Positions 7,559 through 44,544 of a stretch of 64,000 bases of DNA are shown here, in pieces. The translations under genes and the position numbers were made by a program. Under the pieces are notes generated by a model, which had not been told where the DNA came from, did not search any database, and was given only the letters and a program-made list of their open reading frames with translations. Position 1 is the stretch's first letter. Every line of letters starts with the position of its first letter. Source of the stretch: an uncultured Aquimarina sp. (GTDB lineage Bacteria > Bacteroidota > Bacteroidia > Flavobacteriales > Flavobacteriaceae); assembly GCA_947495425.1 (NCBI GenBank), contig CANLYR010000022.1, positions 360 to 64,359 on the forward strand, written 5' to 3'.

Positions 7559-8131
7559 CTATAATCCATTTACCTTAAATATTAAGACACATAGTGCTTT
7601 ATCAAATCTGTGATAGATTTTCTCTTCTTCTTTCTTGTCGAGAATTGTGTACCTAAAGTCTTTTTTCTGAAAGTCACCTCCTGTTACCATTTTACGATAT
7701 TGAAAACGACAACTCTTTATCTCCTCAAAATCATCTTTGAACTTATTCTTTCCGCAATGATAAGATAGAGTAACAATTGTATCAAGTTCGTTAGAGATTG
7801 TTGTGAATAGACTTATAAGTTGGTAGGTATTTGCAGAAGAAACGGTTTGTTTTTGAACACACTCAGCAACGGTATGATTTACAGTTTGAATTGTTCCTTG
7901 CAAGGCCTCAATTTTTCGAATAATCACATCTTTCTCACTTCTCTTGTTATGCATATTTCGTTCAAGAAAAATCGGGATATAGACCGCAAGGAAGATTGTT
8001 ACAACCAAAGTTGCCAAACCAACGACATCAATTTTGTCTTCAAATGAAAAGAGGGGGTAATAATGCTGCAATCCCATTCCGATTACAACACCTACAAGTA
8101 CCAATATGACTCCAATAATGTAACGCATCAT
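7559..8131 (-). CDS. hypothetical membrane protein with two N-terminal TM helices and a cytoplasmic helical domain
   Basis: TM1 is IIGVILVLVGVVIGMGL and TM2 is VGLATLVVTIFLAVYIPIFL. Its start overlaps the upstream stop in ATGA (8128-8131). Confidence 0.6.
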   Translation of the reverse strand: MMRYIIGVILVLVGVVIGMGLQHYYPLFSFEDKIDVVGLATLVVTIFLAVYIPIFLERNMHNKRSEKDVIIRKIEALQGTIQTVNHTVAECVQKQTVSSANTYQLISLFTTISNELDTIVTLSYHCGKNKFKDDFEEIKSCRFQYRKMVTGGDFQKKDFRYTILDKKEEEKIYHRFDKALCVLIFKVNGL

Positions 8132-8460
8132 TTGTCATTGGCTTCTCTAATGTATTCAATGATGTCTTCTTCAAGGAATGGATCGTCATCTGATTTGAAA
8201 TCCAAGTTGTCCAAAACGATTTTTGATTCCTTGTACTCTCTTGTAAGACCACCAAAAGCTGCTTCCAAAAATGAAGTAGCATAGCCAGCTGTCCCATCAA
8301 GGTCTATGAACAATTTTTTCTTTTTCGAAAGAGCTTGCTTGAATTTTGGCAGAAGAATCCTTTCCAAAAACTCTTCGCCTGGGAAATCGCCTTCGATTTC
8401 CTCACGTACACCAGGAATGGTGGTGTAGTCGTCTGCTATTTTAATAATTAACTTGTCCAT
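8128..8460 (-). CDS. STAS-like (DUF4325-like) domain protein
   Basis: KLFIDLDGTAGYATSFLEAAFGGL matches the h-h-D-h-x-G-h..h.SSFh-E-hF core of STAS-like DUF4325 proteins. The ATG at 8460 is preferred over the TTG at 8484 used in the track. Confidence 0.7.
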   Translation of the reverse strand: MDKLIIKIADDYTTIPGVREEIEGDFPGEEFLERILLPKFKQALSKKKKLFIDLDGTAGYATSFLEAAFGGLTREYKESKIVLDNLDFKSDDDPFLEEDIIEYIREANDK

Positions 8461-9476
8461 CTGTTTGTATTGTTTAGTTCCCAATAAAGAAAGGTTCCAC
8501 TAAATTCTTTTGATAATCTTTCATATTTGTCTGTGCTCAAATCAGCCTTTACATCATTTGAAATGATTTTAAGGTTGCTGTAGTAATTGCGTTCAAGACC
8601 TTTGTATATGTTCGGTAATCCCTTACCTCTATACGGGATTTTGGTACTTGACATTTTTCGACCGCTTATTATTTCTTTAAGAACCTCACGGTTATCAGTT
8701 ATTCCAAAGAATGATTTCAAATTATCTCGGAAACCACTCATTTTAGATGACTTGAAAATACCAACTCCCATATCAATAAAGGCAAAGGAAACCTTATTTA
8801 AAGCTTTATCATGGTAAACGGTCAGCCACCATGTCTCATGACCAATTTGAGTTGGTTTAGCATGGTAACAAGTGTTTGCCATACTTTCCATTAAAGCTCG
8901 GTAAACACCTGGACATCTTGCTTCCTGACCAAATACAATTTTGGTTGCTCTTTTAATCATTTCATTGGCAATACCACCTTCAGCCTTTTTGTTTTGTCTT
9001 GTCAGAATGTAGTTCTTGTGTTCGTTATCTGTGCCATTCGCACCAAATACACCGCTTTCCTGAAAAATCTTTCTAAGTTCATCATCTTTGGGATAATTGC
9101 CTTTGATTGGCACACCTTTAGTAATTGCTGGATTCTTAACTACTGCAAGCAGCAAGACAATCGCGTCATTGGTAAGATGGGTAATCTCTTTAAGGTTGAT
9201 TAATATCGGTTTTCTATGTTTTATTTTGTTTATAATCAGTTCCAAATAAGATAAAATGGCCACAGTGTTTTCTACAAACGAAAAATTGGACGGAGCAGGT
9301 AAGCTCTCAAACTGGCTGATTAAGCTTCGTTCGCGTTGTTCTTCTATTGGGACGCCATCAATTGTCCCTCTTTTTTTCTTGACCTTTTCTTTACTCGATA
9401 GCCGCTGCTTCAAACGGTCTTTCGCTTGCTTAGTATTGCGTTTTTTATATTCAGCTGTTGTGTAAAGTTTCTTCAT
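8448..9476 (-). CDS. GHKL (histidine-kinase-like/anti-sigma-kinase-like) ATPase with an N-terminal STAS-like segment
   Basis: Bergerat-fold boxes: N box ESMANTCYHA, G1 FIDMGVGIF, G2 YRGKGLPNIY. The N-terminal region ILINLKEITHLTNDAIVLLLAVV resembles a STAS core. The extreme N terminus is Lys-rich. Confidence 0.75.
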   Translation of the reverse strand: MKKLYTTAEYKKRNTKQAKDRLKQRLSSKEKVKKKRGTIDGVPIEEQRERSLISQFESLPAPSNFSFVENTVAILSYLELIINKIKHRKPILINLKEITHLTNDAIVLLLAVVKNPAITKGVPIKGNYPKDDELRKIFQESGVFGANGTDNEHKNYILTRQNKKAEGGIANEMIKRATKIVFGQEARCPGVYRALMESMANTCYHAKPTQIGHETWWLTVYHDKALNKVSFAFIDMGVGIFKSSKMSGFRDNLKSFFGITDNREVLKEIISGRKMSSTKIPYRGKGLPNIYKGLERNYYSNLKIISNDVKADLSTDKYERLSKEFSGTFLYWELNNTNRWTS

Positions 9477-9880
9477 TTAAATTTCACTTCTGGTCTATTT
9501 TCAGTTTGTGCTTTTTGCATGACGCACAACAATTTCGTATGCATGAAAACACACATACACCCAATTATACGTATTTACAAACACTTAAAATTGCTTTTAC
9601 AACAATACGCAAAAAATAGCCTTGGTCTACTGTGGGAATCCGTAAGGAGGTTGCGTTATTTATTCGTATATAACCAAACGATACGCTGCAAACTATAAAC
9701 AGACTACTTCGTCGTCTGTACCCTGAGCCATTTGACACAGATTTCCTTACTCCATAGTCCGTTTTAGACGAATCACACATTTTTTTCGCAAAAAAACCCC
9801 AGTTCCGGAAGATGAAACTACTATTTCCTAATCTTGCTTTTAATTTTAAACAATAACCTTTTTTTAAAAACAAATCGATT

Positions 9881-10582
9881 ATGTCTAAAGACAATTTTGA
9901 GCAAATGCTCCCGCTATTTGATGCCATGCCAGACCACAAGGTAAAAACACCTAACATACCCGTAGATACGATCCTGCAAGAGGTAGAAGATCTATTTGTA
10001 TGGGCGACCCAGGATAAAACTACCCTGGTCGATAACTCAGGATTAGATTGGGAACACTACGCGAAGGAGTTGCCTGCACGTGCCGGAGCATTGCGGCACG
10101 CGCAATCCATTTGGGTTAGCGAACGCTATGGGCAAGAAGAAGCCAATAAAACCTGGAAAGAAGTATCACCAGCAGCATACGGGCTTAGAGACGACCTGCT
10201 TGATGATTTTAGGTATGCTTATCGCAAACGTACCGATCTGCTAAGCCGAGTGCGCGAGATCAGTAATGGTAGTGGCAATGCCGATATGATACAAGACCTA
10301 AGTGATCTAAGTGTATTGGGTAAAAGTAATCTCGAACCCTTGCTGGTTTCAAAATTCGACCCTGCCAAACTAGAGGAAGCGGCTACCTTATCTAATGATA
10401 TGGCAGAACTGCTGGCCAGAGCCAACGGTGCGACCTTAGAAAACTCTTCGGCCAAACTGGTACGTGATAAAGCTTTTATGCATGTAAAAGAAGCATTAGA
10501 CGAGGTGCGCGATGCCGGTAAATATGTGTTCAAAAATCAACCCGAACGCTATCAAGGCTACATAAGCAGGTATAGAAAGTAA
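9881..10582 (+). CDS. hypothetical helical protein on a GC-richer segment
   Basis: 233-aa ORF with coherent coding-like composition and no TM segments. It is visibly more G+C-rich than its neighbours. No family recognised. Confidence 0.6.
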   Translation: MSKDNFEQMLPLFDAMPDHKVKTPNIPVDTILQEVEDLFVWATQDKTTLVDNSGLDWEHYAKELPARAGALRHAQSIWVSERYGQEEANKTWKEVSPAAYGLRDDLLDDFRYAYRKRTDLLSRVREISNGSGNADMIQDLSDLSVLGKSNLEPLLVSKFDPAKLEEAATLSNDMAELLARANGATLENSSAKLVRDKAFMHVKEALDEVRDAGKYVFKNQPERYQGYISRYRK

Positions 10583-10600
10583 CCAACCCGCACTATTAAT

Positions 10601-10875
10601 GATCCCCGCAGTGGTTTGCCTCTTCCCCGCGCATAGTTGAACGCTCCCCGTGGGTGTTTTAGGCTTCCTCGCGGTAGGTTGATGCTTCCCCGTAGTGCTT
10701 TTCTATTTCCCCGCGCCATAATGATGCGTCCCTGTCGCGGGGAAACTTATTTTGGGTGCGGGGATTCACTATTTGTATGCGAGGAAGGTTAGCGCAACTA
10801 CGGGGAGAGGTGTATATCCCACCGGGGAAGCTGAATAACAACCGGGGAAGACCTACAACCGCTCTGGGAAGCTAA
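10601..10875. repeat. mirror-symmetric array: 7 x CTTCCCCG-type cores, then 7 x CGGGGAAG-type cores, at 21-bp phasing
   Basis: The G of CCCCG falls at 10608, 10629, 10650, 10671, 10692, 10713 and 10734. The C of CGGGG falls at 10738, 10759, 10780, 10801, 10823, 10843 and 10864. The symmetry centre is about 10736. Mirrored cores are complementary in register; the spacers are not. Confidence 0.85.
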
Positions 10876-10905
10876 GTATATGCCAGGTGAGGCTCAAATG
10901 AATAC

Positions 10906-11445
10906 TTAGGTGCATGTAACCCAAAGTAACAAACCTAAAATCAGTAGTAATACAACTATGCCACAGCCCGCTGCTTCGCGACTAATCTCTTCATTTTCTT
11001 TATCTTGTTTCGCTTTCCATCGTTTTGCGACTTTTCTATCTTGTTCATCATATTTTGCTTTAAGATCAGTATCAAAACCAGACACATACTCCTCGAACTT
11101 CTTGAATCCTTCATAAATTTTATATTTGTCATCGCTCGCAGCGCTTAACTGGATGTTCAAAAAAGAATCCAATACCGGATATCCACTTTTTTTACGAAGC
11201 TTGGTAAACATGTTATCGCGCGTATCGTCTAGCACAACAACAGTCTGAAAAATGGTATCAATTTTTAAAAAACTAAGAACTAGTTGTACTTTTTCTAGAG
11301 CACTGCTATCCAAATTGGTAGCAGTATCGTAATTGTATGACAATACATGCGAAACTGCTTCGTCTAGTACATTCTTGGTTTCATAAGGTTCTTGAAACGT
11401 ATATTTCTCCACCTTGTATTCATGTACTTTTTCAAGAGGTTCCAT
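10906..11445 (-). CDS. hypothetical C-terminally anchored membrane protein
   Basis: 179-aa ORF with one C-terminal TM helix (GIVVLLLILGLLLWV) preceded by a charged K/E/D-rich helix. Confidence 0.55.
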   Translation of the reverse strand: MEPLEKVHEYKVEKYTFQEPYETKNVLDEAVSHVLSYNYDTATNLDSSALEKVQLVLSFLKIDTIFQTVVVLDDTRDNMFTKLRKKSGYPVLDSFLNIQLSAASDDKYKIYEGFKKFEEYVSGFDTDLKAKYDEQDRKVAKRWKAKQDKENEEISREAAGCGIVVLLLILGLLLWVTCT

Positions 11446-11533
11446 AGATCACGATTTTTAATTGTGGACAACTTACAAAATAAATGACTAAGCTTTGAGA
11501 AGTTACCTTACTCAAAAATACGAAACTAAAAAA

Positions 11534-14394: not shown

Positions 14395-14580
14395 TTTTCT
14401 AGTTAAAAATAAATAGTGTTATTTAATATTTATAATGCAAAACTAGAACGAAAATCTGTAGAGAATCTGTAGCCTTTTTCCAGAAACATCATAAGTCTGG
14501 ATTTCCTATAAAAAGTTGCCTTGTACCCTAAATTCGATATAAAGTTTTCGATACTCAGTCTTATATAGTCTAAAGGAGTT

Positions 14581-14600
14581 CCTTCTCCTTGGGGAGAGGG
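14581..14600. repeat. GC-rich REP-like hairpin
   Basis: CCTTCTCC-TTGG-GGAGAGGG. Confidence 0.6.
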
Positions 14601-14665
14601 TTAGCCTGCCTGTCGACTCTCCCAGAGCACTACCGTATGTACACAAATAAGTTAAGTTTTTTACA

Positions 14666-14693
14666 TTCCTTCCCCGCCACGGCGGGGAAGGAA
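14666..14693. repeat. GC-rich REP-like hairpin (perfect 13-nt arms)
   Basis: TTCCTTCCCCGCC-AC-GGCGGGGAAGGAA. Confidence 0.8.
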
Positions 14694-14823
14694 CTTTGAC
14701 TAGTTTTTATTCTCATTATTTGCAATACAGTTGTGTAAGAGGATAATAAAAAAAATCGAGTTTGTTTTTAAAAACTACTGCTCTTGTTAGGTGAGAGTTA
14801 ATACTCCCTCCCCTGTGGGAGAG
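14684..14823. repeat. ~140-bp direct repeat, copy 1
   Basis: GGGGAAGGAACTTTGACTAGTTTT..GTTAGGTGAGAGTTAAT..CTGTGGGAGAG. Near-identical to 15048-15185, with a handful of substitutions or indels by eye. Confidence 0.85.
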
Positions 14824-14862
14824 CTACCATGCGTACTCAAATAAGTTAAGCTTTTTTATGTT

Positions 14863-14903
14863 CCTTCCCCTGGCAGGGGAAGGTGTCCCGCCCATAGCGG
14901 GAC
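14863..14903. repeat. two adjacent GC-rich REP-like hairpins
   Basis: CCTTCCCC-TGGCA-GGGGAAGG (14863-14883) and GTCCCGC-CCATA-GCGGGAC (14885-14903). Confidence 0.75.
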
Positions 14904-15034
14904 GGTAGGGGTTGATATTTCAAAATACAAAGAGGTAGATGCTATAATACTACCGTTTAATTCTATAGTTTTAAAAGGCCAAAAGTGATAATAATGCGTG
15001 TATGCATCCCTTCCGAATTGACGATGTCAATCCA

Positions 15035-15055
15035 CCTTCCCCTACCAGGGGAAGG
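15035..15055. repeat. GC-rich REP-like hairpin
   Basis: CCTTCCCC-TACCA-GGGGAAGG. It forms the left border of repeat copy 2. Confidence 0.75.
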
Positions 15056-15185
15056 AACTTTGACTAGTTTTATTCTCATTATTTGCAATACAGTTGTGTA
15101 AGAGGATAATAAAAAATTCGGGTTTGTTTTTAAAAACTAATGCTCTTGTTAGGTGAGAGTTAATGCTCCCTTTCCTGTGGGAAAG
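15048..15185. repeat. ~140-bp direct repeat, copy 2
   Basis: See copy 1. It ends in the hairpin CCTTTCC-TGT-GGGAAAGG. Confidence 0.85.
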
Positions 15186-15233
15186 GATTGGAGTGAGGTC
15201 GTTTACTATAATTTATAATCAGAGTATAAAAAA

Positions 15234-43913: not shown

Positions 43914-43928
43914 CCCGCCTGAGGCGGG
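43914..43928. repeat. GC-rich hairpin in the ilvC-ilvN spacer
   Basis: CCCGCC-TGA-GGCGGG. Confidence 0.6.
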
Positions 43929-43946
43929 TCGGGCTATTCGCTGTAT

Positions 43947-43993
43947 CTTTTATTTCTGATCCCTTCGAGAACCTCAGAGATCAGAAATAAAAG
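43947..43993. repeat. long hairpin (15-nt perfect arms) in the ilvC-ilvN spacer
   Basis: CTTTTATTTCTGATC ...17 nt... GATCAGAAATAAAAG. Confidence 0.7.
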
Positions 43994-44010
43994 GATGTCG
44001 CTACTATCCC

Positions 44011-44544
44011 TTACACGGTTTCTTCAGTAAAATTTTCTAATAGTGTTGATATATCCATCTTTTCTTTAGTTATAGCAATTCTACCAGAACGTACAAATTG
44101 CATTAATCCATAAGGTTCTAACTTGTGATATAATGCCTCAACTTCTCTTCTTCTTCCAGTTTTTTCAATTACAAAAAACTCTGGAGTTACGGTAACAATA
44201 TTTGCATTGCTGTTTTTTATTACATTTTGGATTTGACGCTCCTCAAATAATAATTTTGAATCTACTTTAAACAAAGCAGTTTCCTGATAGATAATCTCTT
44301 CTTCTTTGTGATAAAAAGCTTTGATTACTTCTATCTGTTTTTCTATTTGTAAAACGATTTTTTTTACTTGTTCTTCGGTTACTTTTACGGCTATAGTAAA
44401 TCGAAAAACATTTTTGATCTCTGATTGTGAAGCCGTCATACTATCCAAATTAATATGGCGCTTTAGGAAAATAGCTGATATTCTATTGAGCAACCCTATG
44501 TTATTTTCGGTATATACCGATAATGTAAAATTTTCTTTCTTCAT
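44011..44544 (-). CDS. ilvN: acetolactate synthase small (regulatory) subunit
   Basis: ACT-domain start LSVYTENNIGLLNRISAIFLKRHINL. Lies directly downstream of the large subunit. Confidence 0.9.
   Translation of the reverse strand: MKKENFTLSVYTENNIGLLNRISAIFLKRHINLDSMTASQSEIKNVFRFTIAVKVTEEQVKKIVLQIEKQIEVIKAFYHKEEEIIYQETALFKVDSKLLFEERQIQNVIKNSNANIVTVTPEFFVIEKTGRRREVEALYHKLEPYGLMQFVRSGRIAITKEKMDISTLLENFTEETV

Follow-up and report, generated by a model that had tools for sequence, protein, structure and literature searches.

The window analysed here, 64,000 nt of contig CANLYR010000022.1 from an uncultured Aquimarina sp., contains a phased array of short GC-rich cores directly downstream of ORF233, a gene for an uncharacterised 233-residue protein. 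Between 10588 and 10881, seven forward (T)TCCCCG cores are followed by seven inverted CGGGGA(A) cores, all in a 21-nt register when the sequence is set out in 21-nt lines. This 7+7 mirror array is real, non-random and conserved, and homologs of ORF233 in several phyla are followed by comparable arrays with other cores. On our best reading of these sequences, the array would be the cis half, and ORF233 the trans half, of an undescribed two-part chromosomal module that spans several phyla. Within this reading, each protein of the family would bind its own array on double-stranded DNA, with one protomer per two helical turns, a proposal to which we assign a probability of roughly 0.48. The parts of the module in the window are as follows.

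9881 to 10582, + strand: ORF233, 233 aa, all-alpha, acidic, member of an uncharacterised family; candidate array reader.
10601 to 10734, + strand: F half of the array (pyrimidine-type), seven (C)TTCCCCG cores whose G ends lie at 10608, 10629, 10650, 10671, 10692, 10713 and 10734.
10736 to 10871, + strand: R half of the array (purine-type, inverted), seven CGGGGA(AG) cores whose C starts lie at 10738, 10759, 10780, 10801, 10823, 10843 and 10864.
10729 to 10753, + strand: junction, a tight dyad or hairpin in which the F and R halves meet core to core (TCCCTG-TC-GCGGGGA), followed by AAACTTATTTT.

A preliminary description, made from the window alone, had reported the mirror symmetry and the 21-bp phasing, and both were borne out, every core falling in one column of the 21-nt layout. 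The forward cores read TCCCCG in five cases, TCCTCG at 10671 and TCCCTG at 10734, and were spaced by exactly 21 nt in six of six steps. Of the inverted cores, five read CGGGGA; the other two are CGAGGA (10780) and CTGGGA (10864), and the steps along this half are 21, 21, 21, 22, 20 and 21 nt. TCCCCG occurred five times in the ~130 nt of array and six times in the remaining 64 kb; for CGGGGA the corresponding counts were five and four. Autocorrelation analysis, which the same description had named as a possible refutation, found the phasing present. Lag-21 self-identity, calculated over 126-nt segments, peaked at 0.524 at 10567, against a window-wide mean of 0.29 (sd 0.046), and this peak was the highest value for any lag from 5 to 39 across the 64 kb. 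The F half displayed an additional 42-nt super-period (0.59), with two alternating spacer types, one of which contains ATAGTTGA (10633–10640) or GGTTGATG (10678–10685). TRF did not report the array in the window because whole units are less than 70% alike.

The helices that had been described between mirrored cores were also found. TCTTCCCCG (10621–10629) pairs perfectly with CGGGGAAGA (10843–10851), and TCCCCGCGCC pairs with GGTGCGGGGA at 9 of 10 positions. Complementarity between the spacers of the two halves was at chance level (1–7 of 13 positions), so that only the cores are complementary. This indicates that selection acts on the cores and not on whole units, and a recent inverted duplication was rejected as the origin of the mirror symmetry on the same chance-level spacer match. 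Two in-phase pairing registers, one unit apart, are available (L7:R1 and L6:R1); RNAfold favours L6:R1, which places the deviant cores CCTCG and CGAGG opposite each other.

The array begins 20 nt past the ORF233 stop codon, with no intervening terminator in a terminator scan, and lies between convergent genes, as had been noted (9881–10582 on the + strand and 10906–11445 on the − strand). Together, ORF233 and the array form a GC-rich island of ~1.1 kb (~9900–10900, 45–55% GC) in surroundings of 30–37% GC; the window overall has 35% GC, as in an Aquimarina-like chromosome. A 13-nt direct repeat, AAAGTAACCAACC (10576–10588) and AAAGTAACAAACC (10923–10935), matching at 12 of 13 positions, flanks the array. 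One copy, the first, spans the ORF233 stop codon; the other falls within the 3′ end of the 179-aa ORF that runs convergently. By a rough estimate, the chance expectation for such a repeat is ~0.07, and the bracketing may be meaningless.

The association between gene and array was examined in 80 genomic loci of ORF233 homologs (labelled L001 and so on) from Flavobacteriales, Cytophagales (Fulvivirga, Microscilla, Cyclobacteriaceae), Marinilabiliales (Prolixibacter, Maribellus, Sunxiuqinia), KSB1, Gemmatimonadota and Calditrichaceae (Calditrichota). A chain finder took the best 6-mer with at most one mismatch, repeated at steps of 20–22 nt or multiples of these, and a chain was defined as at least seven phased cores. 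Of 76 loci, 59 had such a chain within 0–620 nt past the stop codon; none was present in the 620 nt upstream of the ATG (0/77), in a segment 1650–2270 nt downstream (0/70) or in shuffled downstream sequence (0/76). The chains of these 59 loci carried 7–25 phased cores and started 0–300 nt past the stop codon. For most loci, the strongest periodicity in the gene and the 3 kb on either side of it was at lag 21 or 42 (sometimes 20 or 41), located 0–350 nt past the stop. The linkage held in Flavobacteriales, Cytophagales, Marinilabiliales, KSB1, Gemmatimonadota and Calditrichaceae.

Across 81 loci, no gene family other than that of ORF233 recurred; neither an NTPase gene nor synteny was conserved. 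Nucleotide homology of the window to L001 and L002, its closest orthologs, was limited to 9791–10786, and the flanks were unrelated. What is inherited is thus the gene with its array, ~1.1 kb in length, while the contexts change. The earlier pointer to the adjacent 233-aa protein was thus apt, gene and array being co-inherited across phyla. A comparison of the spacer in relatives had also been suggested; in orthologs the array layout was kept, rather than replaced by unrelated sequence.

Over 62 related arrays the period was 20.90 ± 0.19 nt (range 20.25–21.33), which upholds the two-turn phasing first described for the window. Single steps were of 21 nt in 327 cases, 20 nt in 78 and 22 nt in 32, with steps of 20 and 22 nt often compensating for each other or alternating, and several arrays had a 41-nt super-period. 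The period was kept even though core sequences had fully turned over between clades. A period of ~21 bp matches twice the helical repeat of B-DNA (~10.5 bp), and because it is held so closely over 62 arrays, placement of all sites on one face of the DNA is the best single reading of the phasing. The alternative of a coding repeat, in which 21 nt would correspond to a heptad, was rejected on the frequent 20- and 22-nt units, the 41-nt super-periods and the flip in orientation in mid-array.

Two array architectures were observed: R (purine-type) cores only, which was the commonest, or a mirrored arrangement of an F block followed by an R block. Mirrored arrays occurred in the window and in L001–L010, L035, L057–L061, L063 and L076, which represent three Bacteroidota orders, and the F block came first in every one. 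In 13 other mirrored loci, as in the window, the last F core and the first R core stand head-to-head, 2–4 nt apart. The 7+7 layout is common to the window and L001–L007, and the F half aligns unit for unit with those of L001 and L002. Where the window has CCCCG as its F core and CGGGG as its R core, L001–L006 have CCCGG and CCGGG. That the two change together indicates that both halves track one recognition sequence.

Core sequences were clade-specific, orthologs having common cores and paralogs of one genome different ones. The clade of the window (L001–L011) has TCCC(C/G)GGC and GCCGGGA, while a second Aquimarina clade (clade B) has TGCGGGG, TGCGGA, CGCTGA, CGCGCA and CCGCGC. Other loci have CGGTGA, ACAGGA, CTCACC, CGCAGGAA, CGTTGGAAA, CCGCGAA or GATGGGG. 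The cores CCGGGA, GCGCAG, CGCGC and ACAGGA occur in A. mytili, whose paralogs include L004, L030, L040 and L060, and the cores TCCCGG, GCGCTG and GCTGAT in A. algiphila, whose paralogs include L002, L014 and L034. In L013, L050 and L080 the whole array unit is constant. A cell with several paralogs thus has several different cores, which calls for a reader specific to each paralog; with no other conserved gene nearby, the product of the ORF is then the only candidate for the trans component. The same differences led us to reject a Chi-like or other host-factor site as the identity of the cores.

A homology search with ORF233 returned 233 relatives, from Aquimarina (several paralogs per genome), Joostella, Draconibacterium and many metagenomes. 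A profile search (E ≤ 1e-3) extended the family to 2095 clusters at 50% identity, nearly all of them single-domain proteins of 230–270 aa, and no domain fusions were seen among the longer members. Paralogs within one genome are only ~50–60% identical and are therefore old residents rather than recent insertions. Searches of Pfam, PHROG and PADLOC gave no match. NCBIfam yielded only a weak, sub-threshold match to PQLLE_fam ('PQLLE family protein'); 32 of 51 members showed it, the best at E 3e-6, and no mention of that family was found in the literature searched.

An AF2 model of ORF233, built from a 51-sequence alignment, was all-alpha (pLDDT 93, pTM 0.73), with a 50-residue helix at residues 64–113. 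Foldseek comparison of the model with PDB and BFVD gave nothing under E 0.1, and a profile search of PDB sequences gave no match. At 14 positions of ORF233, K or R is present in at least 85% of the family, and several of these positions are distributed along the long helices. The modelled 50-residue helix would measure ~75 Å, close to the 71 Å of 21 bp, which suggests that one elongated protomer could occupy each unit.

We propose, on the strength of these sequence patterns, that ORF233 would recognise the ~8-bp GC-rich core on duplex DNA and load as a phased, polar row, with one protomer per 21 bp and all protomers on one face of the DNA. The 7+7 opposed sites of the window would then give two converging rows, meeting head-to-head at the dyad 10734–10738. 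Binding would presumably be cooperative. When transcribed from the ORF, the central dyad could serve in addition as its intrinsic terminator. With each paralog reading its own core, there would be no cross-talk between modules in one cell. We infer the protein to be the reader, and duplex DNA rather than RNA to be its substrate; on the second point, the evidence was weighed at roughly 2:1 to 3:1 for DNA. In the cell, such a module could anchor or mark DNA in the manner of a centromere, form a polar barrier or serve as a titration sink.

Several observations weigh against this proposal. ORF233 is acidic (pI 5.3; family median 5.4), and neither domain nor fold searches revealed a recognisable DNA-binding motif or fold relative. 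The two halves of the array are not equally conserved: between L001 and L002 the F half is 94% identical and the R half 68%, so the halves are under different constraint or turnover, which is not predicted by a simple symmetric array of sites. Between the cores, in alternation with them, stands a second motif, ATAGTTGAT or GATGGTCGAT, which different paralog clades have in common. In clade B, a terminator at ~+74 is itself made of F and R cores (L021), so that F:R cores appear to build terminator hairpins in some clades, and at least part of the array may act as RNA. Finally, the F-then-R order and the dominance of purine-type cores on the ORF strand are fixed relative to transcription, a polarity that a strand-specific function at the RNA level would equally predict.

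The second motif, present in the window spacers as ATAGTTGA/GGTTGATG, returns as CCGATGGTCGAT units in clade B and is independent of the paralog. In some paralogs, heptad microsatellites follow or replace the 21-nt arrays. Repeats of (CAACTAT/CGACTAT)n lie after the array in L057 (+260 to +410 from the ORF stop) and L058 (+340 to +610), and repeats of (GGTTGAT)n lie at +30 to +150 in L038.

The fixed polarity raises the alternative that the module works at the RNA level, the array being transcribed by terminator read-through or from a promoter of its own. It could then act as a row of ORF233-binding motifs in the manner of a type III toxin–antitoxin or sponge RNA, as a long interrupted hairpin of mirrored arrays in which pyrimidine-type cores mask purine-type ones, or as a 3′-UTR (untranslated region) element controlling the ORF mRNA. 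We consider these variants, taken jointly, unlikely, though they are the strongest competitor to protein rows on DNA. In their favour, F always comes first and R-type arrays predominate. The window array starts 20 nt past the stop without an intervening terminator, and its F half, which lies inside the transcript, is the better conserved one. In the window and in clade B alike, core pairs make up a terminator hairpin. Purine-type cores contain GGA or GGGA, in some loci within small hairpin loops, and the divergent paralogs per genome, patchy spread and variable contexts recall the behaviour of toxin–antitoxin or defence systems. A check of RNA folding had been suggested, and the array of the window did fold better than shuffled sequences (z −4.1 to −4.6 on the + strand).

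Against an RNA-level function, unidirectional arrays folded like shuffles (most z near 0, range −4.0 to +2.2), and mirrored arrays folded on both strands without a consistent preference for the + strand. In-register pairing of F and R cores, with unpaired spacers in the window, was not kept in L001. The transcript had earlier been pictured as a ~270-nt interrupted hairpin; of this, only the pairing of the cores stands, together with the central hairpin, which, followed by CTTATTTT, resembles a terminator of the ORF. The terminator scan located this hairpin at 10729–10743, followed by AACTTATTTT. Hairpin and T-run are conserved in L001 and L002; in these loci and in the window the dyad is followed by CTT(A/G)TTTT, and from its sequence the dyad looks like the terminator of ORF233.

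In 35 of 62 loci, a terminator-like hairpin with T-run stood ahead of the array or early in it; in only seven did it come after the array. It preceded the whole array in 13 (e.g. L062, L074, L067; likewise L084) and was inside the array, usually in the first part, in 22 more; strong terminators stood right behind the ORF in L062, L084, L081, L003 and L013. The main transcript of the ORF therefore does not extend over the greater part of each array. An RNA-level function also leaves unexplained a 20.9-nt period, with ±1 jitter, in all phyla. Rfam 15 gave no match at gathering thresholds and only chance-level matches (E > 1) over 9700–11100, so a known structured RNA family over the array was rejected, and the protein carries no signature of ToxN, AbiQ or another RNase. 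Complements or copies of the cores were found neither in their own ORF nor in its 5′ region, which disposes of antisense pairing with the ORF mRNA or 5′ region and of the cores as an upstream operator. Three independent Logan contigs of 1001–1095 nt that carry one homolog (L081–L083; sample type not recorded) all end exactly 131 nt past the stop, inside the array, and have different 5′ ends; their shared end may mark where a transcript stops or where assembly broke off in the repeats.

Type III toxin–antitoxin loci (toxIN, cptIN, tenpIN) are compact, with one protein gene and a tandem-repeat array, a terminator between them and several specificities (PMC3401426). The module resembles these in pairing a protein gene with a repeat array, often with a terminator between, in its several specificities and in its patchy distribution. 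Unlike them, it has the gene first and the array downstream (81 loci), often past a terminator, which is the reversed order. Its units are 21 nt with an 8-nt core, as opposed to near-identical units of ~36 nt, its one-way arrays have no conserved RNA fold, and no relative of ToxN, CptN, TenpN or AbiQ was found with Pfam, PADLOC, or PDB sequence and fold searches. The Csr/Rsm sponge RNAs (CsrB, RsmY/Z) likewise have many GGA motifs at semi-regular spacing, some in small hairpin loops. The module differs from them in its strict ~21-nt phase, in the variation of the motif between paralogs, in the lack of GGA from the F half in the window and in the lack of an Rfam match. It also differs from CRISPR and TIGR guide arrays, in which constant repeats alternate with unrelated spacers of fixed length beside cas or tas genes, since its core is ~8 nt, its spacers are diverged copies of two alternating types, and some loci have a constant unit; no Cas or Nop-domain genes were found near the module by Pfam scan and neighbour comparison.

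Less probable still than an RNA-level function is that the array is independent of ORF233 and only travels in the 3′ flank of the gene, being read by a host factor, working through the shape of the DNA (phased A/T tracts, curvature, a roadblock or an insulator) or serving simply as an elaborate terminator. The acidic protein without a nucleic-acid-binding signature would fit, as would the terminator-like hairpin and T-run of the junction, and ATAGTTGAT/GATGGTCGAT and the heptad microsatellites could be sites for such a host factor. A host factor would, however, impose one core per genome, yet the cores of paralogs differ. A terminator does not need 7–25 phased units, and the link to one protein family persists across phyla while the neighbours change.

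That the array is part of a classical mobile replicon, with an iteron origin and initiator, a plasmid centromere, or the transposase or terminase sites of an integrated element, had been among the first readings offered for it, and now appears improbable. Tandem sites of ~21–22 bp are typical of iterons, arrays after the gene of a binding protein recall sopC, parS and P1 incA, and the GC-rich island has flanks that are unrelated even in its closest orthologs. Against this, domain searches with the protein gave nothing of the Rep, ParB, transposase, integrase or terminase kind, and no ParA, ParM, TubZ-like or other neighbour, NTPase or otherwise, is conserved. PLSDB plasmids, INPHARED phages and IMG/VR contained no match to the module, and on this basis a phage, plasmid or viral origin was rejected. 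An origin of replication found no support in DnaA boxes, the nearest similar 9-mer being a single site at 11463 with one mismatch and the counts lying below the shuffle mean; nor in cumulative GC skew, which runs straight through the array region without a shift. No tRNA was found at the locus, and paralogs that are ~50–60% identical within a genome would be old residents.

Of the known systems, iteron and centromere arrays with their cognate proteins come closest to the way in which the module would work. The likeness to iteron arrays (P1 incA, F incC, R6K, RK2) lies in short direct repeats about two turns apart and in arrays that can stand downstream of the binding-protein gene, in both orientations and with pair-specific recognition. 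Iterons are direct repeats of 17–22 bp at about two turns; the array agrees in spacing, with only ~8 nt conserved per unit. Unlike iterons, the arrays are longer (7–25 units) with a conserved core of only ~8 bp, ORF233 does not belong with the Rep or winged-helix initiators such as Rep_3, RepA or pi (Pfam, NCBIfam and PHROG contained no Rep match for it, and PDB no structural match), and the module lacks nearby DnaA boxes or an AT-rich unwinding element. It is chromosomal, with 3–4 divergent paralogs per genome and no plasmid homologs.

With plasmid centromeres (F sopC/SopB, R1 parC/ParR, pSK41 parC, pBtoxis tubC/TubR, pSM19035 omega heptads), the module has in common a phased repeat array beside the gene of a coating protein, although coating is here only proposed. 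Both can have two groups of repeats or mixed orientation, and the heptad microsatellites of L038, L057 and L058 recall the pSM19035 omega heptads. The module differs in having no conserved ParA, ParM or TubZ partner (81 loci; the neighbours in the window are unrelated), no ParB helix-turn-helix (HTH), ribbon-helix-helix or winged-HTH signature or fold match in ORF233, and no plasmid location.

The preliminary description had also seen in the array an expanded, unzipped relative of REP-like hairpins elsewhere in the window. Local expansion of such hairpin debris, or a chance pattern without function, is the least credible of the explanations weighed. It draws on the fact that CTTCCCCG also forms hairpin arms at 14669–14690, and CTTCCCCT at 14864–14882 and 15036–15054. 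These hairpins are part of a separate intergenic element, duplicated ~362 nt apart, and related arrays use quite different cores. Orthologs keep the layout while the core co-varies (CCCCG/CGGGG in the window, CCCGG/CCGGG in L001–L006), and phased arrays occur at 59 of 76 homologous loci and in none of the controls. REPs are dispersed genome-wide copies of one imperfect ~35-nt palindrome. REP and BIME elements resemble the module in their short GC-rich palindromic motifs and their intergenic position between convergent genes; the module, unlike REP, has one phased array that goes with one gene family and whose cores are particular to each clade. Outside the array, TTCCCCG...CGGGGAA occurs once in 64 kb, at 14670, within the different, duplicated element.

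That element, in the intergenic region 14560–15200, has 75-nt and 69-nt blocks that are 87–91% identical, and no Rfam match. Its GC-rich hairpins are TTCCTTCCCCGCC/GGCGGGGAAGGAA (14666–14692) and CCTTCCCCT..AGGGGAAGG (14863–14883 and 15035–15055). The hairpin arms have CTTCCCC in common with the array cores; in other respects the element is unrelated to the array.

Upstream of ORF233, ~85 nt before the ATG could be aligned with L001 and L002, and three further features were noted.

9800 to 9819, + strand: palindrome CAGTTCC-N7-GAAACT, operator-like, upstream of ORF233.
62 to 112 nt before the ATG of homologs: GTTYC-N7-GAAAC in L007, L013, L014, L016, L019, L021, L022, L024, L031, L038, L040 and L046.
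9829 to 9836, + strand: possible −7 promoter box TAATCTTG, 45 nt before the ATG; TATCCTTG in L001, L002 and L007 in the alignment.

An exact copy of GTTYC-N7-GAAAC occurs only once in the 64 kb (9800–9819), and 13 Aquimarina loci of homologs have the palindrome 62–112 nt ahead of their ATG, whichever array core they carry. Its sequence would suit the operator of a shared regulator or a hairpin in the 5′ region. The Bacteroidetes-type −7 promoter consensus is TAnnTTTG. A 130-aa ORF on the − strand (9565–9957), which overlaps the promoter region and start of ORF233 and has no family match in any library searched, is probably not a gene. Just upstream of the module, on the − strand at 8128–9476, lie a 342-aa protein matching phrog_3364 (E 6e-36, function not assigned) and then a 118-aa DUF4325 (STAS-like) protein. 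The pair has no PADLOC match and may represent a variable or defence-like neighbourhood. At 43923–44024 on the − strand, a Flavo-1 RNA (Rfam RF01705) scored 55.7 bits, the gathering threshold being 42; it was the sole Rfam family above threshold in the window, and fits an origin from Flavobacteriia.

Literature searches on 21-bp repeats, Flavobacteriaceae iterons, Aquimarina tandem repeats and Bacteroidetes type III toxin–antitoxin systems returned nothing relevant. We tentatively suggest, somewhat short of an even chance, that the family represents a new class of chromosomal protein–repeat modules, with more than 2,000 clusters in at least four phyla, in which an elongated protein of an unseen helical fold polymerises on private, phase-locked cores that each paralog evolves for itself. 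Its role would then be outside known systems, either as an NTPase-free polar barrier or anchor, or as a protein–nucleic-acid addiction or defence pair of reversed gene order.

If the proposal is correct, a large unannotated protein family would gain a testable partner, its own downstream array, and a recognition code, the 8-bp core that differs between paralogs. The gene with its 21-nt-phase signature would provide a simple annotation rule for arrays that gene and repeat finders miss. The module would be a compact natural system for the phase-locking of protein rows to the DNA helix and a model for the divergence of specificity after duplication. It would also show what a centromere- or iteron-like array does on a chromosome without a motor or an initiator.

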